A stretch of DNA of 64,000 nt from assembly GCA_043814985.1 (NCBI GenBank), contig JBDRJK010000014.1:45108-109107 (forward strand). The letters run 5' to 3'. A model generated the notes under the pieces. That model had not been told where the DNA came from. It made no database searches and was given only the letters and a program-made list of their open reading frames with translations. The position numbers and the translations under genes were made by a program. Positions 28,435 to 42,094 of the stretch are shown one piece after another. The stretch is from Candidatus Aenigmatarchaeota archaeon. GTDB taxonomy: Archaea > Aenigmatarchaeota > Aenigmatarchaeia > Aenigmatarchaeales > Aenigmatarchaeaceae. Position 1 is the stretch's first letter. Each line of letters begins with the position of its first letter.

Positions 28435-29676
28435 TCAGATATTGACAACATCCCCGTTCTTGGGAGCTATTGTGTCAAAGCCCCTACCTCTCAGCTCAGT
28501 TGCAAACCTTTCACAGTAGTCTCCGTGCAGGCACATGACCTTCTCCGGGTTTATATTGTTGACAAACTTGAACAGGTCGGCCCTTCCCACATGAGCTGAA
28601 AAGTCCATCCTTTGTATGTTCATCTTTATCTTCAAATCAAAACCTTCTGTGACAAACCTTCCCGTGTCAACAAGGTATCTTCCGGCTGTCTTCGGTATAA
28701 GGAAGCCAGTGAATATTATGGAGCTTTCAGGACTGTTGTACAATGACTTGACATAGCCTACAGAAGGCCCTCCTTCCAGGAGCCCTGATGTCGTTATAAT
28801 CGCGCAGGGCTTCTTTGTTATGGCCCTCCTCTGCTCTGCAGATTCTATTGTCCTGACATTCTTGAAAGCCTTTCTCAAAGCCTTGGCATCTCTAATAAAT
28901 TCTGGATAGCTCAGTGATATTTCAGTTGCTTTTCTTGCCATGCCATCCAGATAAACAGGAAAATCATGCTTGAAGGAATCAACAACCATCAGAACTTCTG
29001 CTGCTCTTCCAATGGCAAATGATGGAATGATAGCAACCCCCTCGTTGGCGATTGTTCCCTCAATGGCTTCGAAAAAATCCTTTTCCACCTCCTTTCTAGG
29101 TGGATGGTCCCTGTTGGAGTAGGTGCTTTCCATTATAAGCAGGTCAACATCCTTGACATCTATCTTGGCGCCCTTGAGCAATCTTGTATCATTTGTGTTG
29201 AAGTCGGAAGTGTAAAGGATTCTCTTGCCTCCCATTTCCAATAAGCAGCAGAAGCTTCCTGGTATGTGCCCGGCATTGTAGAATTCCATTGAATAGTCAT
29301 TGGTCTCAAACCTCTGGCCATATGTTATCCTGGTTTCATTCTTTTTCATCTTTGCAACGCCCACTTTGGTGAAAGGCAATTTCTTGTTCTCATATCTGGC
29401 TATTTTCATACTGTCTCTCAGGAGAAGATGTGTAAGTTCAAAGGTAGTGATTGTTGACAGCACATTAGGCTTCATCTTCCCGAACAGCTTGGGAGCAGAA
29501 CCAATATGGTCCAGGTGGCCATGATTTAATACAAGCGTATCAACTTTACTTGGGCTCAATGGAGACTCACCAGTTTCAACCTTGACCCCATAGTCAAAAA
29601 GTATGCTTTTCTTCCCTTCAATAAGGACAGCATTCTTGCCGACTTCCCTGAAGCCTCCTAGGCATCTTATCTTCAT
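28435..29676 (-). CDS. MBL-fold beta-CASP ribonuclease (aCPSF2-like, no KH domains)
   Basis: LGGFREVG, HGHLDH, AGHIPGS, MESTY, FAIGR, FSAH, LHGD. Confidence 0.9.
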   Translation of the reverse strand: MKIRCLGGFREVGKNAVLIEGKKSILFDYGVKVETGESPLSPSKVDTLVLNHGHLDHIGSAPKLFGKMKPNVLSTITTFELTHLLLRDSMKIARYENKKLPFTKVGVAKMKKNETRITYGQRFETNDYSMEFYNAGHIPGSFCCLLEMGGKRILYTSDFNTNDTRLLKGAKIDVKDVDLLIMESTYSNRDHPPRKEVEKDFFEAIEGTIANEGVAIIPSFAIGRAAEVLMVVDSFKHDFPVYLDGMARKATEISLSYPEFIRDAKALRKAFKNVRTIESAEQRRAITKKPCAIITTSGLLEGGPSVGYVKSLYNSPESSIIFTGFLIPKTAGRYLVDTGRFVTEGFDLKIKMNIQRMDFSAHVGRADLFKFVNNINPEKVMCLHGDYCERFATELRGRGFDTIAPKNGDVVNI

Positions 29677-31222: not shown

Positions 31223-32251
31223 ATGAAAGCCTACAAGAATTTAGAAGAACGTGTAAATCTTGTCAAGCGTAATACTGTTGAAGTTCTCACTGACGAAGAA
31301 TTGGTTGAGCTGTTAAAAACCAAAAAGCAACCAACAGTATATCACGGACGGGCAATTACTGGTCCTTTGCATATTGGACATTTGATTCCTTTGGGTAAGC
31401 TTTTTGATTTTAATAGAGCAGACATAAAAGTTAAAATTTTGTTGGCTGACATTCATGCAGCTCTTGATGATTTAAAGTCAAAATGGGAGGACCTTGACAA
31501 AAGAGCCGAATATACTCGTAAATGCATTGAGTTGTCATTTGACTGGCCAAAGAAACTTAATTTCGTAAAAGGTTCTGACTTCCAGCTTGAAAAGAACTAT
31601 GTTATGGATATTTGGAAGATTGCTACAATTGCTACAGTTGTCAGAACCACAAGGGCTGCATCAGAGGTCACTAGGATGAAGAACCCTAAGACAAGCGAGT
31701 TGGTCTATCCAATAATGCAGGCTTTGGATGAGCAATATCTTGATGCTGACATACAGCTTGGGGGAACTGATCAGAGACATATAATGGCTTTTGCTAGGGA
31801 ATACCTGCCTAAGATAGGATATAAAAAGAGGGTTGAGATTATGACTCCCTTATCTGCTTCATTACTTGGTTCTGGGACCAAGATGAGTTCGTCCATACCT
31901 GCCAGTGTCATAAAAGTCTATGATTCTGAGGAGTCAATAAAAAAGAAAATAAACAAGTCATACTGTCCTGCCAAGATAGTTGAGAACAATCCTATAATCC
32001 AGATAGCTTCAATGCTGATAATTCCTATAGATGGAAAGTTATCCATAAAGAGGGACAAGAAGTTCGGTGGTGATATTGACATCACATCTTCAGAACAACT
32101 TGAAAAACTTTTTGTTAATGGAGAACTTCATCCAGCTGATTTGAAAAATGCAGTTACAACATATCTGATAAACAAATTCAAACCAGTAAGGAATTATTTT
32201 GAAAAAAATACTGATATCTTGAAAGATTTGGGAAATGAATTCTTGCCTTAG
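31223..32251 (+). CDS. tyrS: Tyrosine--tRNA ligase (archaeal type)
   Basis: HIGH, YPIMQALD, GGTDQ, KMSSS, LHPADLK. Confidence 0.93.
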   Translation: MKAYKNLEERVNLVKRNTVEVLTDEELVELLKTKKQPTVYHGRAITGPLHIGHLIPLGKLFDFNRADIKVKILLADIHAALDDLKSKWEDLDKRAEYTRKCIELSFDWPKKLNFVKGSDFQLEKNYVMDIWKIATIATVVRTTRAASEVTRMKNPKTSELVYPIMQALDEQYLDADIQLGGTDQRHIMAFAREYLPKIGYKKRVEIMTPLSASLLGSGTKMSSSIPASVIKVYDSEESIKKKINKSYCPAKIVENNPIIQIASMLIIPIDGKLSIKRDKKFGGDIDITSSEQLEKLFVNGELHPADLKNAVTTYLINKFKPVRNYFEKNTDILKDLGNEFLP

Positions 32252-32275: not shown

Positions 32276-33241
32276 TTATATCTCAATAATACGTTCTTTT
32301 ATTGCCTGACCGAAATGCGTTGCAACTGGTTCTGAAACATAAGCCTTAACCGAGTCTCCAGGCTTTATTTTGGTTACTGGTATTGAGCCATCAGGAGAAA
32401 CGATTCTTACAGTTTCTGCGTTCTGTGAGCATATGGTGCCTGTCTTATCTCCGTATTGTGCTTTTATGAATATCATTGGCCTCATCTCCTTTTTCAGAAC
32501 CGCCGCATAGGCCTTTCTAGTCTTGCCCTCATAGTTTACAGCTAAGACATCTTCGCAGATTTGGTCCATGGACTTTAAGTCGTCCAGATATTTTGGGGAG
32601 AAGCCATTACCTGAAAATACCTGCGTATACATTCTAGCAGCTCCAGCATTCACCCTCCAATCCCTTTTGTTGACAAAGGGGTTTTCATCAGTCTCAGCAT
32701 CAGGCAAGAACATAAAATCAGTTTTGAAACCAACCAATAATCCTTCCCTCTTCTCAAAAGATGCGATTGTGTCCACACAAACCCTCTTACCTATGTCCGC
32801 TCTTTTGGTTTCAACAACCTCAGCGTTAACCAAGTTAAGTTTAGGAGGGGATTGATAATAAGAACAGAAATCTTCTATCTTTTCTGGGTCGCTCACAACA
32901 AAACCGTCAACGCCCATTTCAAGAGCATTTGCGAGGGCCTTTGAGCCTTCTATATCATTGGTCTTGACTAAAACCTTTGTATTGCTTTTCTGTGTTAGGG
33001 CAATCAGATTTTCAGTTGGTATGGCCTCCCAATCCGTGAAGTTAGCAATTAGATAATTCACACCTTTCAATTTTCTTCCAACAGCCTCTATATCCTCCTG
33101 AGAACTTATTTTAACTTCCTTGTAACCTTTTGGTAAAGTTGGCAGGTTTCCTTTGCTCTGTCCTAGTATTCCAGTGGCATTATATTTTATTACATCATCT
33201 TCCAAGTCTTCTTTTCTACAATCAACCCATATTTCTTTCAT
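32276..33241 (-). CDS. aroB': 3-dehydroquinate synthase II (archaeal AroB')
   Basis: DWEAIPTENLIA, RVCVDT, WRVNAGA, QNAETVR, THFG. Confidence 0.9.
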   Translation of the reverse strand: MKEIWVDCRKEDLEDDVIKYNATGILGQSKGNLPTLPKGYKEVKISSQEDIEAVGRKLKGVNYLIANFTDWEAIPTENLIALTQKSNTKVLVKTNDIEGSKALANALEMGVDGFVVSDPEKIEDFCSYYQSPPKLNLVNAEVVETKRADIGKRVCVDTIASFEKREGLLVGFKTDFMFLPDAETDENPFVNKRDWRVNAGAARMYTQVFSGNGFSPKYLDDLKSMDQICEDVLAVNYEGKTRKAYAAVLKKEMRPMIFIKAQYGDKTGTICSQNAETVRIVSPDGSIPVTKIKPGDSVKAYVSEPVATHFGQAIKERIIEI

Positions 33242-33273: not shown

Positions 33274-34122
33274 TTATCTCATATATTTTACTAGGGCCTT
33301 TTCAACAGTCAATCCCTCATGAACAATCCCACACATTGTTCTTACCATGGCAGTTGGATTTTCATGTTGGAATGTATTCCTTCCTATTGAGAGACCAGCA
33401 CCACCGGCCTGTATTGAACCGTAGACAATATCCAAAAATTCTTTTTCTGAATCTGTTTTTGGACCGCCTGCTATCACAACTGGAACAGGACAACCTTCAG
33501 TAACTTCTCTGAATGAATCTACAGAACCAGTATAGTTGGTTTTAATTATGTTCGCACCCAATTCAGCCCCAAGACGTGCAGCATGGCTGACAGCTTCAAC
33601 AATAAATTGATAATCTTTCTTACCTTTTAATTCATATCTCTTATCTAAATCTTCCTTTAATTTTAGCCCCCTTGGATACATCATTGCAAGTAAAGGCATT
33701 TCCCATTCATTACATATTTTTGATGTTTCACCAAGATATTTTAATTGCTGTGCCTCAGTCTCAGAGCCCATATTCACATGAACAGAAACAGCATCAGCCC
33801 CATATTTTATGGCTTCTTCCACAGTTGCTACTGGCACTTTATTATCTGGATCTGGCCCCCATTTAGTACTTGCTGACATATGCATTATAAGCCCGATATC
33901 TTTTCCAGAGCCTTCAGAACCTCTGTAGCCAGCTTCTATAATACCTTTATGTGTTATTACAGCATTCGCCCCTCCCATTGCAGCTGCATCAATTGCTTGT
34001 GACATATTCTTGAGACCTTTTATAGGTCCTTCTGACACTCCATGATCCATAGGAACTATTACAGTCTTTCCGCTCTTCCTATCAAATATCCTGTCCATTC
34101 TGATTTGTTTTCCAATACCCAT
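33274..34122 (-). CDS. aroA': 2-amino-3,7-dideoxy-D-threo-hept-6-ulosonate synthase (AroA', DhnA-type aldolase)
   Basis: PMDHG, MYPRG, IIKTNY, AGGPK, GRNTFQ; adjacent to aroB'; ATG 34122 preferred. Confidence 0.85.
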
Positions 34123-34192
34123 AAGATTACCTATCAAACAATTGAACAGAAAGCTTTAAATCCCTTTTTTTCCAATTAATTTTGTTGGTTAA

Positions 34193-34246
34193 ATGAGAAG
34201 CAGACTCTACTTCAAGTATACACAGTATTTCTTTACATTTATGTAG
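34193..34246 (+). CDS. Putative leader peptide MRSRLYFKYTQYFFTFM
   Basis: Read directly; 3 Tyr + 4 Phe in 17 aa; stop 46 nt before the aspartate kinase ATG. Confidence 0.7.
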   Translation: MRSRLYFKYTQYFFTFM

Positions 34247-34248
34247 AG

Positions 34249-34289
34249 TCAACACTTTTCTTCTCAACTCTTCTGAAAAAAGGTGTTGA
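34249..34289 (+). promoter_or_regulatory. Hairpin sequestering the aspartate kinase Shine-Dalgarno
   Basis: TCAACACTTTTCTTC (34249-34263) pairs with GAAAAAAGGTGTTGA (34275-34289), 14/15 pairs incl. one G-U; contains AGGTG 34281-34285. Confidence 0.7.
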
Positions 34290-34292
34290 ATA

Positions 34293-35588
34293 ATGACAAT
34301 AGTTCATAAATTCGGTGGCGGCATAATAAGAGACGGAAGCGGTCTTGCAGACATAGAAATGGTTACTAGAAGCTATGATGTTCCGCAACTAATTGTTGTT
34401 TCTGCCCTGAAAGGTGTTACAAATGAATTAAGAGAATATTTGGAAAGAGACGAACCCAACATTGCCAGAAGCACTATAGTAAATTATGCCCTTACTGGAA
34501 GAGACTGGATTAAAGGCAATAATGAACGCGATTCATTTCTCAGAAAATTAAAAGATTTACAAGAAGAATTGCTAGACCCAGAGTTAAAAGTTGATGAAGT
34601 CCTATCTTTCGGAGAAAGGCTCTCCACAGAATTTTGTTATCATGCCCTAAAATCTAGGGGAATAGATGTAGGTAAAGTCAATTATGATAGATACCATCCT
34701 CTCGATTTCTCAATCATCTGTTCTGAACATAAAGAGGATGCTGATCCAATACTTGAAAAAACAAAAAACAATTTTGGCTTAGTAAAAGAAAAGATGGAAG
34801 AGCATGATGTAGTTGTTTTGCCAGGCTTTATTGGGGTAACTGAACTAGGTGAATTGAGAACATTGGGTAGGGGCGGTTCGGATACCACTGCTCTAGCTTC
34901 TGCTTATGCATTAGATGTAAATGAAGTTAATCTATGGAAAGATACAAAGGGAGTAAGAACAGCTGACCCGGGAATAGTTAAAAATACTAGATTAATACCT
35001 CACATTTCATATTCGGAAGCAAACAATATGACCAAGTCTGGGGCAAAGATAGTGCAGCACAAATCATCCAAACTTGCTGAAGAAACCGGAATCAAAATGA
35101 GAATACCTTATATTAAGGATTCAAGTATTTTCACTGTTATTAATGGTGAAAGGAGAGCAGAAGAGCCTCTGGTAAAGTATGTTGGAGGGACCGACAGTGC
35201 AAAAATGATATCATGTAGTTTTGACGAATTTCTTGAAATAAGAGAAGAATGCCAAAAGCAAAACCAACAGGACGATTTTTTTATACTTCATGGAAACTAC
35301 AACAATTTAAGAGTCTTGATTTTGAATAATAAAAATAATATCCACAAAGGCAAAAAAGTTGGTGTGGCTACTTTGGTTGGTGACAGATTAAAAGAAACAA
35401 AGGGTGTATTAGAAAGAGCTTCTCACCAATTGAGGGAACAGAAAATAAATATTATTGACTATGGTAGTGGTGGTGAGGAAGAATTGTACATGTCTTTTAT
35501 ATTGAAAGATACTCTTACAAAACCCTCAATAAGAGCATTACACAAGAAATTCATAGAGGAAGACACATTCTGGAAGAACAGAAATTAA
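34293..35588 (+). CDS. lysC: Aspartate kinase
   Basis: HKFGG, VVSA, SFGERLS, PGFIG, TLGRGGSDTTA, TADP; ACT-like C-terminus. Confidence 0.9.
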   Translation: MTIVHKFGGGIIRDGSGLADIEMVTRSYDVPQLIVVSALKGVTNELREYLERDEPNIARSTIVNYALTGRDWIKGNNERDSFLRKLKDLQEELLDPELKVDEVLSFGERLSTEFCYHALKSRGIDVGKVNYDRYHPLDFSIICSEHKEDADPILEKTKNNFGLVKEKMEEHDVVVLPGFIGVTELGELRTLGRGGSDTTALASAYALDVNEVNLWKDTKGVRTADPGIVKNTRLIPHISYSEANNMTKSGAKIVQHKSSKLAEETGIKMRIPYIKDSSIFTVINGERRAEEPLVKYVGGTDSAKMISCSFDEFLEIREECQKQNQQDDFFILHGNYNNLRVLILNNKNNIHKGKKVGVATLVGDRLKETKGVLERASHQLREQKINIIDYGSGGEEELYMSFILKDTLTKPSIRALHKKFIEEDTFWKNRN

Positions 35589-35624
35589 TCAAGCTTAAAT
35601 AATTTACTTTTCATAAAAGCTTAT

Positions 35625-35696
35625 ATGTTGGGCACACTTGAAAAACTTTCAATCAAGATTTCTCTATCTTCATCTGGCTCATGCTGTTCAGAATAA
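35625..35696 (+). CDS. Putative leader peptide MLGTLEKLSIKISLSSSGSCCSE
   Basis: Read directly; 7 Ser, 2 Cys, 2 Gly in 23 aa; stop 42 nt before serA-like ATG; TTAAAT box at 35595-35600. Confidence 0.7.
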   Translation: MLGTLEKLSIKISLSSSGSCCSE

Positions 35697-35738
35697 TTCC
35701 ATTGGAATAATTCTTCTTTAAATTATGAGGGGATAAAA

Positions 35739-36635
35739 ATGACAAAAATATATGTTGCTGGCGGGCTGGATGGAAACAGGATAGCAGAATCCTGTGGTGT
35801 AGACCTGGCACCAAAAATCGAGGACGCCGAGATACTGGTTACAAGGAGCAAAACAAAAGTCAACAAGGAGCTAGTAGACAAAATGCCATACTTGAAGTAC
35901 GTAATAACCGCCACTCACGGCATTGACAATCTCGATACTGAATACTTAACAAGAAAAGGAATAGAATTTCACCCTGTTCCTGCCCAATCCTATGATGTCG
36001 CGCAGGGTGTTATAGGTTATATTTTAGCTCATGCCACAAACCTTGTAGAAGGAGACAGGTCAATGAAACGCGGTGAGTGGAAAAAGAAAGAATTCTTTGG
36101 TCACAGAATAAATGAGAAGACCTTGGGAATAATCGGTTGTGGGAAGATAGGTAGAAATATTAAGAAAATGGCTTCTGCTCTAGGTATGGATGTTGTTACT
36201 TTTGATGCGTGTGTTGAGACTGAGGAATCAGTGTCTTTTGAAGAACTCTTAAGAAAGTCAGACTATGTGACTGTCAATGTTCCTCGAACCAAAGACACTA
36301 TAAATTTGATAGGAAAGGAAGAGATTGAAATAATGAAAGAGGGGGCCTACATAATAAACACAGCAAGGGGTGGAATAGTTGATGAGAAAGCCCTTCTTGA
36401 GGCAATAGATAGTGAGAAACTGTCTGGTGCTGCCTTGGATGTTTTTAAAAATAACTCTGAAAATAATCTACCATTTGGAGACAACAGTTCTGGAAGGCTA
36501 ATAGCTCATGAAAAGGTAATAGCTACGCCGCATAGCATTGGTCAAAGCCAAGAGGCTGTTGACGACAAGCATGAAGGAGTAATAAGAATCATTAAGAATT
36601 ATATAAGTAATAATAACAAAATAGAAAGTGAGTAA
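35739..36635 (+). CDS. serA: D-3-phosphoglycerate dehydrogenase-like 2-hydroxyacid dehydrogenase without ACT domain
   Basis: VTRSKTKV, GIIGCGKIG, INTARG, ALDVF, TPH; overlaps serS frame; DVFxxEP region is divergent. Confidence 0.7.
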   Translation: MTKIYVAGGLDGNRIAESCGVDLAPKIEDAEILVTRSKTKVNKELVDKMPYLKYVITATHGIDNLDTEYLTRKGIEFHPVPAQSYDVAQGVIGYILAHATNLVEGDRSMKRGEWKKKEFFGHRINEKTLGIIGCGKIGRNIKKMASALGMDVVTFDACVETEESVSFEELLRKSDYVTVNVPRTKDTINLIGKEEIEIMKEGAYIINTARGGIVDEKALLEAIDSEKLSGAALDVFKNNSENNLPFGDNSSGRLIAHEKVIATPHSIGQSQEAVDDKHEGVIRIIKNYISNNNKIESE

Positions 36636-37926
36636 AATGCTTGATATAAAAGTTATAAGGGAGAATCCGACCATTGTAGAAACTGACTTGGATAAAAGGG
36701 GAGACAATGAAAGGAAGAAAATCCTGAAGAAACTTGTTGAAGACGATAAGAAATACAGGGAACTTCTCCAAGAGGTGGAAGACTTAAAACACAAGAGAAA
36801 CGTTCTTTCCAAGGAAATAGCTTTATTGAAAAAGGACAACAAGGATGCTGCTTCAAAACTAAAGGAAGCTGCAGAAATTCCAGAAAAAATTAAGAAACTG
36901 GAAGAAGAAATTTCAAAATTAAAAGAAAATATTGATTTGGCCTTATACAGGATACCCAACCTTCTCCATGAGTCTGTTCCTGTTGGCAAGGACGAGTCCG
37001 AGAATGTTGAGATAAGGAGATGGGGGAAACCTCCTAAATTTGATTTCGAGCCAAAAAGCCATTTTGAAATATTGAATGACCTTGGGATGATAGATGCTGA
37101 GGCAGCTGCAAGGGTTTCAGGCAGCCTGTTCTTCTTTTACAAGGGTCCAATTGTTTTGTTAGACCTTGCATTGCAAAGATTTGCTCTGGATATCATGGCC
37201 AAAGAGGGATTCCAGATTATTTATCCACCATTCATGGTCAATAAGAAAGTCTACGAAGGAATGATAGGAGACCCTACTGACTTTGCTGAAGCGAGCTACA
37301 AGATAGAAGGAGAAGAGCTGTATCTGATACCAACAGCAGAATATCCACTTGGGGGAATGTACATAGACCAAACCATCAATCAAAAAGACCTGCCCTTGAA
37401 GTTATGCGGTGTAAGCTCCTGTTTCAGAAAAGAGGTTGGCACGCACGGCAAGTTCTCTAAGGGCTTGTACAGGATGCACCAGTTCAACAAGGTTGAGATG
37501 ATTGTGATGTGTTTGCCTGAAGAGTCTTGGGACTTCCATGAAAAAATGCAGAAAATTTGCGAAAGTGTCTACCAACAATTGGGTTTGCATTACAGGGTCG
37601 TTAATGTTTGCACTGGCGACATAGGAACCAAGGCATCCAAGAAGTATGATACAGAGATATGGATGGCTGATGGAAATTTCAGAGAGGTCGGTTCCAATTC
37701 AAATGTTCTGGATTATCAGGCAAGAAACTTGAACACAAAATACAGAGAAAAAGAGGGTCAAGCCCCAAAGGGATTTGTACACATTCTTAACAATACAGTT
37801 CTAGCAACCTCAAGAACAATGCTTGCTATTCTAGAGCAATACCAACAAAAGGACGGAACAGTACTAATACCAAAAGTTCTGCTGCCCTACATGGGTGGAA
37901 TCAAAAAACTTGAAAAGCTCAAGTAA
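36628..37926 (+). CDS. serS: Serine--tRNA ligase
   Basis: MLDIK coiled-coil arm, IPTAE, FRKE, RMHQFNKVE, HILNNT; start may be ATG 36637. Confidence 0.95.
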   Translation: MSKMLDIKVIRENPTIVETDLDKRGDNERKKILKKLVEDDKKYRELLQEVEDLKHKRNVLSKEIALLKKDNKDAASKLKEAAEIPEKIKKLEEEISKLKENIDLALYRIPNLLHESVPVGKDESENVEIRRWGKPPKFDFEPKSHFEILNDLGMIDAEAAARVSGSLFFFYKGPIVLLDLALQRFALDIMAKEGFQIIYPPFMVNKKVYEGMIGDPTDFAEASYKIEGEELYLIPTAEYPLGGMYIDQTINQKDLPLKLCGVSSCFRKEVGTHGKFSKGLYRMHQFNKVEMIVMCLPEESWDFHEKMQKICESVYQQLGLHYRVVNVCTGDIGTKASKKYDTEIWMADGNFREVGSNSNVLDYQARNLNTKYREKEGQAPKGFVHILNNTVLATSRTMLAILEQYQQKDGTVLIPKVLLPYMGGIKKLEKLK

Positions 37927-38704: not shown

Positions 38705-39823
38705 ATGGAACTAAACATATGGGACTTGCCAATAAACAAGTTTTATGTTAAGTTGAATAAGGATTTTGTAGAAGAGGCTTTGAGTAAAATAAAATCTAAA
38801 TATGGCAGTTACAAAAAATTTTATAATAAATACAACATAGTAGAAAGCACCTTTTTTGGTTGGCGTAGAAACTGCCTTTACCCCTTACCAATTGTTATTA
38901 AACTTTGTAAACTGCTGGGCATACCCTTGGATTATATGCAAAAAAGCGTAACAGAATTAAAAAGCAAGCCATACCCTTCCAAGGGTGGAGATATAAGTTC
39001 TCCCATATTTCCAAATTTTCCCTTGAAACTATCCTTAGAACTTGTTAGACTAATAGCCCACATGTTGGGCGATGGTTGCATAACTCTCAATAAAAAGGGG
39101 CATTACAATTTTCAATATTACAATAAAAGTGAACATCTCAGAGAAATGTTTAAAGCCGACTCAAGAAAAGTTTTTGGAAATTTGTATATACATGAAGCTG
39201 TCAACAAAGGAACGCCATACATATTTTTACCTGCACCCGTTGCTATAATATTTCTCCATTTAGTGAAGGATTTTCACAGCAAGAAAAGTAGAGTGCCCAA
39301 ATTCATAAAAACATCCTCTTCCAAAGTAAAGAGAGAGTTCATTAAGTCTATCTTTGACGATGAAGGCTCTGTCAAATTTAGGAAGAATGAAAGAAATATA
39401 GAATTTGCACTGTCAAACAAGCCATTTGTAAATGATGTAAAAATATTATTGAATGAATTTGGAATAAAGACTTCTAAGATTTCAGAAAGAACTGATAAAA
39501 AAGGATATTACAAGGCTTATTTTTACATAAGAAACTACCATAACATTTCTAAGTTTTATAAATCCATAGGATTTTATCATCCGAAAAAACAGAAAAAACT
39601 AGAGGAAATTATTAAGTTTCCGGGAAGAAAGAGCTATGCTCGCGGTGAGACGAAGAAACTCATTATAAACTTGTTAGAAGAAAGACCTTTTAGTACCTTT
39701 GAACTTTCCAAGAAACTTGAAAGAAGTATAGTTAATGTAGATATTTTTGCCAGAAGACTTAAGAACGATGGAAAGATAGAGCGTTTTAAGACTGGTAAAC
39801 AACTATTATGGAGAGTGAAATAA
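38705..39823 (+). mobile_element. Free-standing LAGLIDADG homing endonuclease with HTH domains
   Basis: LIAHMLGDG and FIKSIFDDEG motifs; N- and C-terminal HTH-like segments; no intein splicing residues seen. Confidence 0.85.
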
Positions 39824-42094
39824 ATGGTTATAATAATTATTTGTGAAAAACCTGATGCGGCAATGAGGATGTCTAGAGCATTGGCAGAGAAGGACCTGAA
39901 GAAGAAGACGAGCAAGTACGGCGTTGACTACTACGAATTCATGAGGAACGGCAAGAAGCACATTGTTGTTGCAGCTGTTGGCCACCTCTTCAACCTAAAA
40001 CAAAACGGCAAGGGTTGGGACTATCCTGTTTTTGACGCTGACTGGGTGCCTTCTTTCAAGGCCATCAAAACATCAGCCTTCTCGGAGAAATACTTCAGGA
40101 CAATAGAGCAAATAGCAAATGAAAACAAGAACAGCAAACTAATCAGTGCGGCTGACTATGACAACGAAGGGTCTGTGATAGCCGCAAACATAATCAAGTT
40201 TATTTTCAATCAGGACGACGCCAAGCGTATGAAGTTCTCCACCCTAACCAAGCCTGACCTGATAAAGTCCTACGATGAGATGATGCCACATTTAGATACA
40301 GGAAATATCGAGTCGGGAGTTGCAAGGCACTATCTTGATTATTTCTACGGAGTATCAACAACAAGAGCATTGACACTTGCTGTCAAGAAGAACTCAAAAA
40401 GATTCTCAATAGTTTCAACTGGCAGAGTCCAGGGACCTGTGCTGACAATGCTTGCCAACAAGGAGCTTGAGATAAACAGGTTCAAGCCAAAGCCCTACTG
40501 GCAATTACAAATGATTTTGCTAATTAATGGAAACGAGGTTATTGCCCTTTATGAAAAGGAGAAGATGTGGGACGAGAAAGAGGCTACAAAAATATTCAAG
40601 GCGGTAAAGGGAAAGGCAGCTGTTGTCGATGATGTCAACAAGAGAGAATACAAGCAAGCACCACCAAAGCCTTTCAACATAACCTCCTTGCAAACAGAAG
40701 CTTACAGACTGTTCGGCTATTCACCGCAAATGACCTTGGGAATAGCGCAGAAGCTCTACACAAGCGCTTTCATTTCTTATCCGAGAACATCATCAGAGAA
40801 GTTGCTGCCTCAGATTGGTTATAAGGAAATCTTGAAGGCCTTGTCAAACATCAAGAAGTACAAGAAATTGTGCGATGAACTTTTGAAGGAAAAGGATTTG
40901 ACGCCAACCGAGGGCAAGAGAACAGATCCAGCCCACGAGGCAATACACCCGACAGTCGAGCCGCCCAAGTCAGTAGCAAGACTGAGGGCATCGTCCCAAA
41001 GGATTTACGATTTGATATGCAGGAGATACCTTACCTGCTTTGGCAAGCCTGCGACAAGGGAGAGCATGAAAGTCACTATCAAAGTTAATGGTAATAAATT
41101 CATAACAACTGGAAGAAGGACACTTGAAAAAGGCTGGATGCAGTACTACGGACCTTATGCGAAGTTCGACGAGATTGTTCTGCCTGACTTGAAGAAAGGC
41201 GACAAGCTGAAGATTAAAACATTAGATATGTTGAGCAAGGAGACATCACCACCCCCAAGGTTTTCCCAGGCAGCCATGATCAAGGAAATGGAAAAAAGAG
41301 GCTTGGGAACAAGGGCTACCAGGGCAGCCATCATGCAGACTTTGTACAACAGGAGCTATGTCATGGGTAAGAGCATTAAGGTCACTACACTGGGATTAAA
41401 GGTTGCAATGAACCTGAAGAAGTATGTTCCTGATTTTGTTGACGAGAAGCTCACAAGAAGGTTTGAGAAGGACCTGGAAAAAATAATGCAGGAAAAAGTG
41501 AAGAAGGAGAAGATACTGAGCAAGGCCAAGAAGGTTGTTACAAAGATATGCGACGAGTTCAGGAAGAACGAGGACGAGATTGGTAAGGGACTTGGCGAAG
41601 CCATTATAGAGACGCAGAACAAAAAGGCAACACTTGGTCCATGCCCCAACTGTGACGGGACCTTGAAGATAATGTTCAGCCCGTTTTCCAAGAAAATGTT
41701 TGTGGGATGCACCAGCTATTCAAGGTGCAAGAAGTGCGGCTTCACTAAAAAGGCCTGCAAGTGCAAGTGTCCCATTTGCAAAGGTCAGAAAGGGAAATGT
41801 AAATGTAGCTGGAAGGAGAAAGTATGGATGCCATCATGCCAGACAGGCTTCCCGTTGCCGCATAATGCTTCCTTCACGAGTCTGGAGAAGCTCTGCGACA
41901 AGTGCAACACGCCAATTATCAGGGTCATGAGAAAGGGCAAGAGGCCCTTCAAGATGTGTCTTGATCCCAATTGTGTAACAAAGGCTGATTGGGGCAAGAA
42001 AAAAGAGAAGAAAGGCAAGACAACTAAGGCAGTGAAGAAAGCAATCAAGAAGACTGTTAAGAAAAAGGCTTCTAAGAATCCCAAAAAGAAGTGA
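39824..42094 (+). CDS. topA: Type IA DNA topoisomerase
   Basis: CEKP, AVGHL, DYDNEG, GRVQ, ISYPRT, AHEAIHPT, LGTRATR, C-terminal Zn ribbons. Confidence 0.95.
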   Translation: MVIIIICEKPDAAMRMSRALAEKDLKKKTSKYGVDYYEFMRNGKKHIVVAAVGHLFNLKQNGKGWDYPVFDADWVPSFKAIKTSAFSEKYFRTIEQIANENKNSKLISAADYDNEGSVIAANIIKFIFNQDDAKRMKFSTLTKPDLIKSYDEMMPHLDTGNIESGVARHYLDYFYGVSTTRALTLAVKKNSKRFSIVSTGRVQGPVLTMLANKELEINRFKPKPYWQLQMILLINGNEVIALYEKEKMWDEKEATKIFKAVKGKAAVVDDVNKREYKQAPPKPFNITSLQTEAYRLFGYSPQMTLGIAQKLYTSAFISYPRTSSEKLLPQIGYKEILKALSNIKKYKKLCDELLKEKDLTPTEGKRTDPAHEAIHPTVEPPKSVARLRASSQRIYDLICRRYLTCFGKPATRESMKVTIKVNGNKFITTGRRTLEKGWMQYYGPYAKFDEIVLPDLKKGDKLKIKTLDMLSKETSPPPRFSQAAMIKEMEKRGLGTRATRAAIMQTLYNRSYVMGKSIKVTTLGLKVAMNLKKYVPDFVDEKLTRRFEKDLEKIMQEKVKKEKILSKAKKVVTKICDEFRKNEDEIGKGLGEAIIETQNKKATLGPCPNCDGTLKIMFSPFSKKMFVGCTSYSRCKKCGFTKKACKCKCPICKGQKGKCKCSWKEKVWMPSCQTGFPLPHNASFTSLEKLCDKCNTPIIRVMRKGKRPFKMCLDPNCVTKADWGKKKEKKGKTTKAVKKAIKKTVKKKASKNPKKK

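Follow-up and report, generated by a model that had tools for sequence, protein, structure and literature searches.

Two Short Reading Frames Upstream of Aspartate Kinase and a Dehydrogenase

The DNA analysed here (the window) is a stretch of 64,000 nt from contig JBDRJK010000014.1 of a Candidatus Aenigmatarchaeota archaeon (assembly GCA_043814985.1). Two consecutive intergenic regions, IGR1 and IGR2, each carry a short upstream open reading frame (uORF). The first, uORF1, precedes an aspartate kinase-like gene (AK) and is rich in aromatic residues; the second, uORF2, precedes a D-isomer 2-hydroxyacid dehydrogenase gene and is rich in serine and cysteine (Table 1). A preliminary description of the sequence had proposed that both encode leader peptides that sense tRNA charging. 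Its observations were confirmed in part, and its interpretation is partly supported.

The genome is 808 kb in size, 39.8% GC and 91%-complete, and the archaeal genes found in it or in the window include those for family-B DNA polymerase, STT3, Cdc48, EF-1 beta, eRF1, GatD and 3-dehydroquinate (DHQ) synthase II. The gene for 2-amino-3,7-dideoxy-D-threo-hept-6-ulosonate (ADH) synthase is divergent from uORF1 and AK; its ATG at 34122 is inferred, as the model alignment begins at residue 6-8. The best family match of the dehydrogenase is phosphoglycerate dehydrogenase (TIGR01327, 228.8 bits, below the cut-off of 454), and its reading frame overlaps that of the seryl-tRNA synthetase (SerRS) gene by 8 nt.

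The preliminary description placed the uORFs 42-46 nt before the next gene, in intergenic regions of about 150-170 nt, with a pyrimidine tract after each stop, and this anatomy was borne out. IGR1 is 155 nt long and IGR2 150 nt. The gap from the uORF1 stop to the AK ATG (34293) is 46 nt, and that from the uORF2 stop to the dehydrogenase ATG (35739) is 42 nt. The tracts are ttttcttctcaactcttctg (34256-34275) and ttcttcttt (35711-35719), respectively.

Table 1. Genes, short reading frames and predicted signals around IGR1 and IGR2 (window coordinates; MFE, minimum free energy; BRE, B recognition element; PWM, position weight matrix).
Feature	Position	Strand	Details
Tyrosyl-tRNA synthetase (TyrRS)	31223-32251	+	
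DHQ synthase II (aroB')	32276..33241	-	Pfam PF01959 5.6e-71; NCBIfam matches below curated cut-offs
ADH synthase (aroA')	33274..34122	-	TIGR01949 332.9 bits, cut-off 299.45
BRE/TATA-like site	34151..34161	.	AAGCTTTAAAT; palindromic TTTAAA core 34155-34160, AAGC in front
uORF1	34193..34246	+	MRSRLYFKYTQYFFTFM; ATG 34193, TAG 34244-34246, 17 codons, F4, Y3
IGR1 hairpin (predicted)	34249..34289	+	Begins 3 nt past uORF1 stop; MFE: 34249-34259 pairs with 34278-34289, G34282 bulged
AK	34293..35588	+	AA_kinase plus weak ACT; PF00696 1e-33; TIGR00657 200 bits, just below cut-off 208.7
Promoter a, BRE/TATA-like	35591..35602	+	AAGCTTAAATAA; TTAAAT (35595) begins 30 nt before uORF2 ATG, a leaderless geometry; PWM 2.8
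Promoter b, BRE/TATA-like	35617..35628	+	AAGCTTATATGT; AAGC plus TATA-like, overlaps uORF2 start; PWM 6.8
uORF2	35625..35696	+	MLGTLEKLSIKISLSSSGSCCSE; ATG 35625, TAA 35694-35696, 23 codons, S7, C2, G2
Helix P1 (predicted, long-range)	35672..35734	+	MFE: AUCU/CUCAUG 35672-35683 pairs with UAUGAG/GGAU 35724-35734
Hairpin P2 over uORF2 stop codon (predicted)	35690..35714	+	Enclosed by P1; 11 positions, one mismatch; then TTCTTCTTT 35711-35719
D-isomer 2-hydroxyacid dehydrogenase	35739..36635	+	298 aa, without ACT domain; PF02826 2.4e-52
SerRS	36628..37926	+	TIGR00414 487.5 bits, cut-off 301.65

Amino Acid Composition of the uORFs

The composition of the two peptides was compared with that of ORFs arising in dinucleotide shuffles of the same regions (5000 each). 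A uORF with at least 7 Ser, as in uORF2, arose in 0.42% of the IGR2 shuffles, and one with at least 9 Ser+Cys in 0.12%. For uORF1, at least 7 Phe/Tyr/Trp were reached in 2.5% of the IGR1 shuffles, and its aromatic content ranks third among 451 uORFs genome-wide. In both peptides these codons are clustered near the end of the frame (SLSSSGSCCS in uORF2, YFKYTQYFFTF in uORF1). The enrichment in pathway end products described earlier therefore stands for uORF2, while uORF1 has no enrichment for Thr/Lys/Met/Ile (at least 5 in 16.8% of shuffles) and is enriched in aromatic residues.

Promoters and Leader Architecture

Across this genome, TATA hexamers are most frequent 27-30 nt before ATGs and show a smaller maximum at 38, indicating that most genes are leaderless; in the remaining genes, Shine-Dalgarno (SD) motifs peak at -9 to -13. 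AK and the dehydrogenase gene have SD sites (GGTG at 34282-34285 and GAGGGGAT at 35727-35734, respectively) and no TATA at a usable distance, nor is one present between either uORF and its main gene. Their mRNAs must therefore begin further upstream, with leaders of roughly 90-114 nt. The arrangement of a TATA 27-42 nt before a uORF, followed by an SD-bearing gene without an intervening TATA, was found in 5 of the 366 intergenic regions of at least 60 nt, IGR1 and IGR2 included.

The TTTAAA core upstream of uORF1 is exactly 38 nt from the uORF1 ATG on the plus strand and from the ADH synthase ATG on the minus strand, and so may act as a bidirectional promoter. A PWM derived from 82 leaderless promoters gives it a score of 7.7 and predicts a start at about 34184-34185. 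The two BRE/TATA-like sites of IGR2, promoters a and b, are both identical in G002, a genome of the same genus.

The cassette TTAAATAATTTACTT(TTCAT)... of window positions 35591-35628 is found again elsewhere, in three further genera of the family (L069, at about 1501-1535 on the minus strand, L070 and L071). The cassette of genome G013 ends in TATATG, the ATG again lying exactly 30 nt from the start of the TATA, and continues with TTT TAA, giving a two-codon ORF.

Predicted RNA Structures

Both SD sites fall within helices of the MFE folds. The IGR1 hairpin is predicted to enclose the AK SD, and in IGR2 the long-range helix P1 takes in the dehydrogenase SD, its 5′ strand being codons 16-20 of uORF2. 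The bases of P1 are all kept in G002 except 35731 (G>A, changing a U-G to a U-A pair), and the MFE fold of the G002 leader uses another, neighbouring partner (UAUCUUC) in place of P1. Changes of the uORF2 stop codon, TAA>TGA in G002 and TAA>TAG in a related strain (X4, see below), keep the stop plus a G-U pair of P2, or shift the P2 mismatch by one. In a footprint model of IGR1, placing the ribosome over F13-F16 or over the stop codon lowers the cost of opening the SD from 7.2 to 5.2-5.3 kcal/mol. The window has no Rfam match at gathering score, only chance-level matches to unrelated families at E values up to 10, and no T-box match in the same searches.

The pyrimidine tracts behind both uORFs could also point to transcriptional attenuation, the second option of the preliminary description. 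Whether RNA polymerase terminates at the U/C-rich tract behind the stop-codon hairpin, either at intrinsic oligo-U or through aCPSF1/FttA, would then depend on where the ribosome stands on the uORF. The G002 leader has TTTTTCTTCTTT after P2, and the window contains a gene for a beta-CASP/RMMBL nuclease (28435-29676). A consensus scan of 34000-35900, using a bacterial-type rule, found no terminator-like site, and the leader has no T5 run in this genome. A single hairpin and a single long-range helix make up the folds, which contain no mutually exclusive antiterminator/terminator pair. The geometry is also unfavourable: the stop codon lies inside a hairpin arm, so that a terminating ribosome would prevent the hairpin and a ribosome stalled upstream would allow it, which is the wrong sign for a starvation response. 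Control of this kind appears very improbable.

Conservation of the IGR2 Leader

Orthologues were sought in 41 genomes per query (40 relatives and the genome itself). An orthologue of the dehydrogenase was found only in G002 (76% identical), the matches in the other relatives being at most 39% identical. The uORF2 of G002 is MLSLSEKISSIISLSSSGSCCSE, with 23 codons, 10 Ser and a TGA stop; 6 residues are changed, 3 of them to Ser. Contigs of four DNA runs were also compared, and related strains were present in two of them, X4 and X5. The X4 uORF2 has 23 codons and 5 Ser, and carries T4V, L8I, I12F, S13C and S15F, two synonymous changes and a TAG stop; that of X5 has 23 codons and 6 Ser, with T4V, S13C and one synonymous change. 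No indels were seen in either. The frame, length, start and stop position of uORF2 are thus kept in four lineages, with 5-10 Ser and three different stop codons (TAA, TGA, TAG). Maintenance of composition at orthologous loci, one of the checks proposed in the preliminary description, therefore holds for uORF2 in G002, X4 and X5; for uORF1 the genomes searched gave no orthologue. As functional leaders matched to an amino acid, uORF2 remains a candidate, being Ser-rich in three further lineages, while uORF1 is plausible only as an aromatic one.

Conservation is also evident in the nucleotide sequence. Between this genome and G002, the block 35658-35738, which contains the 3′ half of uORF2, the hairpin, the pyrimidine tract and the SD, is identical at 76 of 81 positions (94%), compared with 60.5% and 70% identity at the third codon positions of the dehydrogenase and SerRS genes, respectively. 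The IGR2 leader is under nucleotide-level selection, and is very probably a functional regulatory leader of some kind. The 5′ half of uORF2 is 60% identical.

Searches further afield gave no additional example. A metagenome scan with the dehydrogenase returned four loci, all at most 35% identical and none with a similar uORF, and no Ser-rich uORF was found in the intergenic region upstream of SerRS at 30 loci of relatives, or upstream of the Aminotran_5 gene and the serine hydroxymethyltransferase (SHMT) gene of this genome. An apparent Ser-rich uORF at one SerRS locus (L041) was rejected, since it falls within a coding gene, in a different frame.

The retained frame and length of uORF2 would also be expected if the uORFs encoded small proteins acting in trans, such as a Cys/Ser-rich peptide. 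Residue changes are, however, about as frequent as they would be in the absence of constraint (5 residues compared with 2 synonymous changes in X4, and 6 residues in G002), and peptides of 17-23 residues can hardly form a fold, making this explanation scarcely credible.

A more substantial alternative is that the two regions are structured 5′ leaders that act as RNA, with the helices P1/P2 of IGR2 and the hairpin of IGR1 sequestering the SD, and are opened by a protein (for example, the synthetase itself), by another RNA or by temperature. The ORFs would be by-products, a pyrimidine-rich anti-SD strand yielding Ser codons in one reading frame and T-rich stretches yielding Phe/Tyr. The conservation of the uORF2 3′ half is at the nucleotide level (12/12 third positions) and coincides with the 5′ strand of P1, whereas its 5′ half resembles neutral sequence. 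The stronger promoter-like site of IGR2 predicts a start near 35650, and the two Ser codons altered in X4 lie outside P1, with none altered inside. In IGR1, the stretch 34234-34289 (last three uORF1 codons, stop, hairpin and SD) has no differences in X4, irrespective of the uORF, and the following 33 nt (34290-34322) have 6, counts that derive from the differences listed and assume that every eligible one of the X4 contig is among them. The X4 contig ends inside uORF1, at 34202.

Several features are left unexplained if the ORFs are by-products. The uORF2 ATG is at the exact leaderless distance from promoter a, as is the ATG of the G013 cassette; frame and length persist with three different stop codons; G002 has gained three extra Ser codons in the variable half; and the amino acid match occurs in two adjacent leaders as well as in the f36 and G112 leaders described below. 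There is also no Rfam match, and no ligand or partner that can be named. Purely RNA-based control is unlikely on balance.

Metabolic Context of uORF1 and AK

The aroB'-aroA'-AK block, together with uORF1, lies between TyrRS and the uORF2 leader and has no counterpart in G002, where the uORF2 leader, the dehydrogenase gene and SerRS come immediately after TyrRS. AK was not found in 39 of the 40 relatives, the only match being in G012 (33% identical), and the best match among 371 genomes of the phylum is 41% identical. A genome-collection scan with AK returned four loci, all at most 35% identical and none with a similar uORF. ADH synthase was absent from the results in all 40 relatives. The restriction of the block to this genome suggests that it was acquired by transfer or that the relatives have lost it.

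DHQ synthase II is present in 4 of the 371 genomes of the phylum. Its loci in G087 and G119 are without AK and without aromatic uORFs. No conserved uORF was seen at the four AK loci of family f40 or at AKs of the diaminopimelate (DAP)-operon type.

In archaea, ADH synthase and DHQ synthase II turn aspartate semialdehyde into dehydroquinate. The aromatic richness of uORF1 fits this route, since AK adjoins the genes of both enzymes. The genes asd and SHMT are present in the genome. The route seems to end at dehydroquinate in this organism, or else it feeds another product.

Analogous Leaders in the Same Archaeal Class

The preliminary description also proposed looking for uORFs before other biosynthetic genes in the genome and its relatives. 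Examples came from AK loci elsewhere in the class; the candidates in the genome itself, before the asd cluster and synthetase genes, were rejected. Another AK subfamily, in genomes of family f36, occurs in 6 of the 91 genomes of its order, one locus being broken by a contig end. All five complete loci (genomes G272, G273, G277, G279 and G280; loci L057, L058, L061, L062 and L064) have a TATA followed about 25-30 nt later by a uORF of 15-17 codons with (M)TKKTK. The AK ATG is at locus position 1501 and the leaders span about 1330-1500. The peptides are MMCPSVARMKKTKRF, MSMPTVMMTKKTKLML, MRTSSMHKTKKTMGY, MEFPAMMTEKAKRTYC and MTVPCSIMTKKTKLFML, and their K+T enrichment gives p=0.001-0.0975 per locus. 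Beyond the uORF there follow an invariant GGUC, a GCUGGGG...CCUCCCCAGC helix with an anti-SD (CCUCC), the SD and the AK start. No Rfam family matches these leaders.

The f36 leaders resemble those of the window in their order of elements (TATA, uORF, anti-SD helix, SD, AK) and in having a codon cluster that corresponds to the end products of the pathway. They belong to another AK subfamily (25-32% identical), are GC-richer and have no sequence similarity to the leaders of the window. Judged by sequence, they represent a clear case of canonical-looking Thr/Lys/Met logic for aspartate kinase. Leaderless uORFs of this composition before AK in five of five genomes lend support to the general leader logic, and raise the prior for leader use in these archaea.

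G112, which belongs to the same class, has an AK-asd-ADH synthase-DHQS II-DHQase I operon with an AK homologue as its first gene (L056 1040-1290; L086; L121 6700-11300). A 22-codon uORF, MTIVHRTQAITWQYFYSFSYGQ, begins 40 nt past a TATA and precedes the operon. Its QYFYSF segment aligns with QYFFTF of uORF1, with an order-preserving similarity of p=0.037 in 20000 composition-preserving shuffles, and the leader folds better than shuffled sequence (z -2.24). Another small ORF, which has a strong SD, runs across the GTG start of AK.

Three other uORFs of the window's genome were considered and rejected. The most aromatic uORF of the genome (rank 1), MFFYFFMPYIL (C1:74579-75450; L066 5250-5450, minus strand), precedes a TrmB-like/DUF5661/asd cluster. 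It lies 5′ of its gene's own TATA and has no counterpart in G119, so it was not accepted as a third instance. The TrmB/small ORF/asd cluster recurs beside DHQ synthase II in G119, without the uORF. The 9-codon uORF MGWDSLQFI before a TrpRS-PheRS-alpha operon, and MTGGREIQF before a class-I synthetase, were rejected because a closer TATA lies between uORF and gene. In the former case (C1:56671-59236), the TrpRS-like gene adjoins that of PheRS alpha, their ORFs overlapping, and the uORF is 73 nt upstream with a promoter-like AAGCTTAAAAATA in between.

Proposed Mechanism and Its Assessment

Each IGR would be the 5′ leader of an mRNA that starts at, or a few bases before, the short ORF; the uORF2 mRNA would be leaderless, and in that of uORF1 about 8 nt would precede the ATG. 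With no promoter of its own, the main gene would rely on an SD held inside a helix, whose partner would be the 3′ end of the uORF in IGR2 and the sequence just past the uORF stop in IGR1. Ribosomes reading the uORF would remodel this helix. When charged tRNA is scarce, a ribosome would linger on the codon cluster near the uORF end, the helix would stay open, and initiation at the main gene would follow. In IGR1 the Phe/Tyr cluster (YFFTF) would gate AK, the source of aspartate semialdehyde for the ADH-synthase/DHQ-synthase-II route. In IGR2 the Ser/Cys cluster (SLSSSGSCCS) would gate the pair formed by the phosphoglycerate dehydrogenase-like enzyme and SerRS. The sequences themselves show the anatomy, the biased composition, the retention of uORF2 with a strongly conserved 3′ leader block, and analogous leaders in related archaea. 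The transcript starts, uORF translation, stalling and direction of response in this scheme are inferred.

A number of results weigh against this proposal. The first concern energetics. SD-occluding pairings are predicted in both folds, as the preliminary description stated, but they are not unusual: the energy needed to open the ribosome-binding site is 7.7 kcal/mol for AK and 5.2 kcal/mol for the dehydrogenase, ranking 47 and 124, respectively, among 214 SD-bearing genes. The IGR1 hairpin is ordinary in stem length (perfect stem of 7 bp), and whole-leader folds do not exceed shuffled sequence in stability (z 0.08, 0.92 and -1.25). An early stall in IGR1 raises the modelled SD opening cost to 12.5 kcal/mol. 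A footprint on the Ser run of IGR2 changes it by only -1 kcal/mol, and a ribosome on S19-S22 or the stop adds 1 to 2.5 kcal/mol, with G002 behaving alike. The SD-release mechanism put forward earlier is therefore unsupported by computation, the modelled gain being about 2 kcal/mol in IGR1 and at most 1 kcal/mol in IGR2.

The second group concerns the uORFs themselves. Serine codons of the UCN type arise from a pyrimidine-rich anti-SD in one frame of three, and the aromatic class was chosen for uORF1 after its peptide had been seen (post hoc). In simulations, the uORF2 ORF is retained by chance with a probability of 0.196 (G002) or 0.32 (X4), so that its retention is only modest evidence. The X4 uORF2 has lost two Ser codons (S13C, S15F) and diverges more (9/72) than the X4 AK gene (26/617). 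No orthologue of uORF1 was found in the genomes searched, and the aromatic count of the G112 uORF is not significant against local shuffles (p=0.12). Promoter b, the best PWM site in IGR2 (6.8 vs 2.8 for promoter a), predicts a start near 35650, inside uORF2 and without its AUG, and a TATA-spacer-transcript arrangement would explain the conserved/variable/conserved pattern of IGR2 just as well.

The third concerns metabolism. Searches of the 91%-complete genome gave no EPSP (5-enolpyruvylshikimate-3-phosphate) synthase, chorismate synthase, DHQase I or shikimate dehydrogenase (N-domain), leaving the link between AK and Phe/Tyr synthesis incomplete. No phosphoserine aminotransferase was recognised either, Aminotran_5 giving a single gene that we take, from its N-terminal sequence, to be cysteine-desulfurase-like. 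The end-product logic is thus incomplete for both pathways, but the link between uORF2 and SerRS does not depend on it.

Some of these observations would be accommodated if the uORFs were chance ORFs in AT-rich promoter regions, with the conservation reflecting promoter or terminator signals (tandem AAGCTT+TATA boxes, SD) and no special regulation. A uORF is by itself ordinary: ATG uORFs of at least 10 codons occur in 172 of the 461 intergenic regions of at least 40 nt in the genome, as defined by a crude ORF-based set of 870 genes, and ATG ORFs of at least 12 codons arise in 29.5% (IGR1) and 48% (IGR2) of the dinucleotide shuffles. The strongly aromatic MFFYFFMPYIL is likely a chance product, so aromatic uORFs do arise by chance. 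In addition, the AAGCTT+TATA motif followed by TTTACTTTTCAT recurs at other loci of the family, and leader thermodynamics are unremarkable.

Chance does not account for the 81-nt block 3′ of both TATA-like boxes, which is 94% kept compared with about 60-70% at synonymous positions, far beyond what an SD would need. As the TATA sits 27-30 nt before most ATGs of this genome, a leader as long as 90-114 nt is rare, and the tests of composition yielded p=0.004 and p=0.025. In the two matched instances of the preliminary description, the presence of a uORF is thus ordinary, while composition and architecture (5/366) are unusual. Overall, chance ORFs are an improbable explanation.

Taken together, the sequence evidence gives archaeal leader-peptide control by translational attenuation a probability of roughly 45%. 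Ribosome-dependent remodelling of the SD helix is taken as the most likely mechanism, and is at the same time the weakest part of the case, above all in IGR2. The odds that uORF2 is a translated sensor are about even; for uORF1 the same role is tentative and falls somewhat short of that, and it is unlikely that both work as proposed. Somewhat doubtfully, the idea may be extended to small-genome (DPANN-type) archaea, which could use a set of leaderless leader peptides, each for one amino acid class: Ser/Cys, Phe/Tyr(/Trp) and Thr/Lys/Met.

If such a set exists, charged-tRNA levels would directly gate pathway-entry enzymes and a synthetase, and leader-peptide sensing would be joined with archaeal promoters, leaderless initiation and SD-led reinitiation. 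Attenuation-type sensing would then operate in organisms thought to depend on amino acids supplied by a host. Aspartate kinase would respond to aromatic amino acids and not to the aspartate family, in keeping with the way in which archaea make dehydroquinate from aspartate semialdehyde. The elements are short (about 110 nt) and would be testable in model archaea.

Other Features of the Window and Genome

In the window at 38705-42094, a gene of 372 aa with a LAGLIDADG domain ends where a topoisomerase ORF (Toprim + Topoisom_bac) starts (39823/39824), and a second LAGLIDADG gene is found elsewhere in the genome (C15:25607-26227). Three consecutive same-strand genes for class-II tRNA-synt_2 synthetases, of 452, 448 and 435 aa, are located at C21:54718-59256.

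Comparison with Known Systems

Amino acid sensing by ribosomes on leader peptides is a textbook bacterial mechanism. In enterobacteria, pheL (pheA), pheM (pheST), thrL, hisL and trpL are short ORFs, rich in the cognate amino acid, that precede biosynthetic or synthetase operons, and pheM-pheST is a precedent for a synthetase behind a cognate-rich leader. Control is transcriptional and relies on a GC-rich intrinsic terminator together with alternative 1:2, 2:3 and 3:4 hairpins. Both uORFs share with these attenuators a short leader ORF with clustered regulating codons; alternative hairpins, a GC-rich terminator and an Rfam leader family were not found in the leaders of the window. In ermC and cat, the hairpin in which the SD of the following gene is hidden opens when a ribosome pauses within the leader ORF. 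The leaders proposed here would likewise depend on a paused ribosome opening an SD-hiding hairpin, but differ in the cause of the pause, which is drug- and peptide-dependent in ermC/cat and would be tRNA charging here. Full-text searches of the open-access literature, judged from titles and abstract openings, turned up no account of an archaeal leader-peptide amino acid sensor.

The closest parallel is offered by the polycysteine leaderless short ORFs of mycobacteria, the Cys 'ribulon', in which, as outlined by Canestrari et al. (bioRxiv 10.1101/834739), stalling of the ribosome prevents the RNA duplex in which the next ribosome-binding site would otherwise be sequestered. That system is bacterial, concerns Cys only and was shown by mutation and proteomics (10.1101/834739). 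The leaders of the window are from an archaeon with TATA-box promoters, involve Ser/Cys and Phe/Tyr, and are known here from sequence alone; thermodynamic modelling lends weak (IGR1) or no (IGR2) support to SD release. A short ORF whose codon run matches the amino acid of the downstream genes is common to both, as is a logic shared by several loci. The archaeal ORFs would also resemble the mycobacterial ones in opening a polycistronic mRNA at its 5′ end and in exerting control at the level of translation (10.1101/834739).

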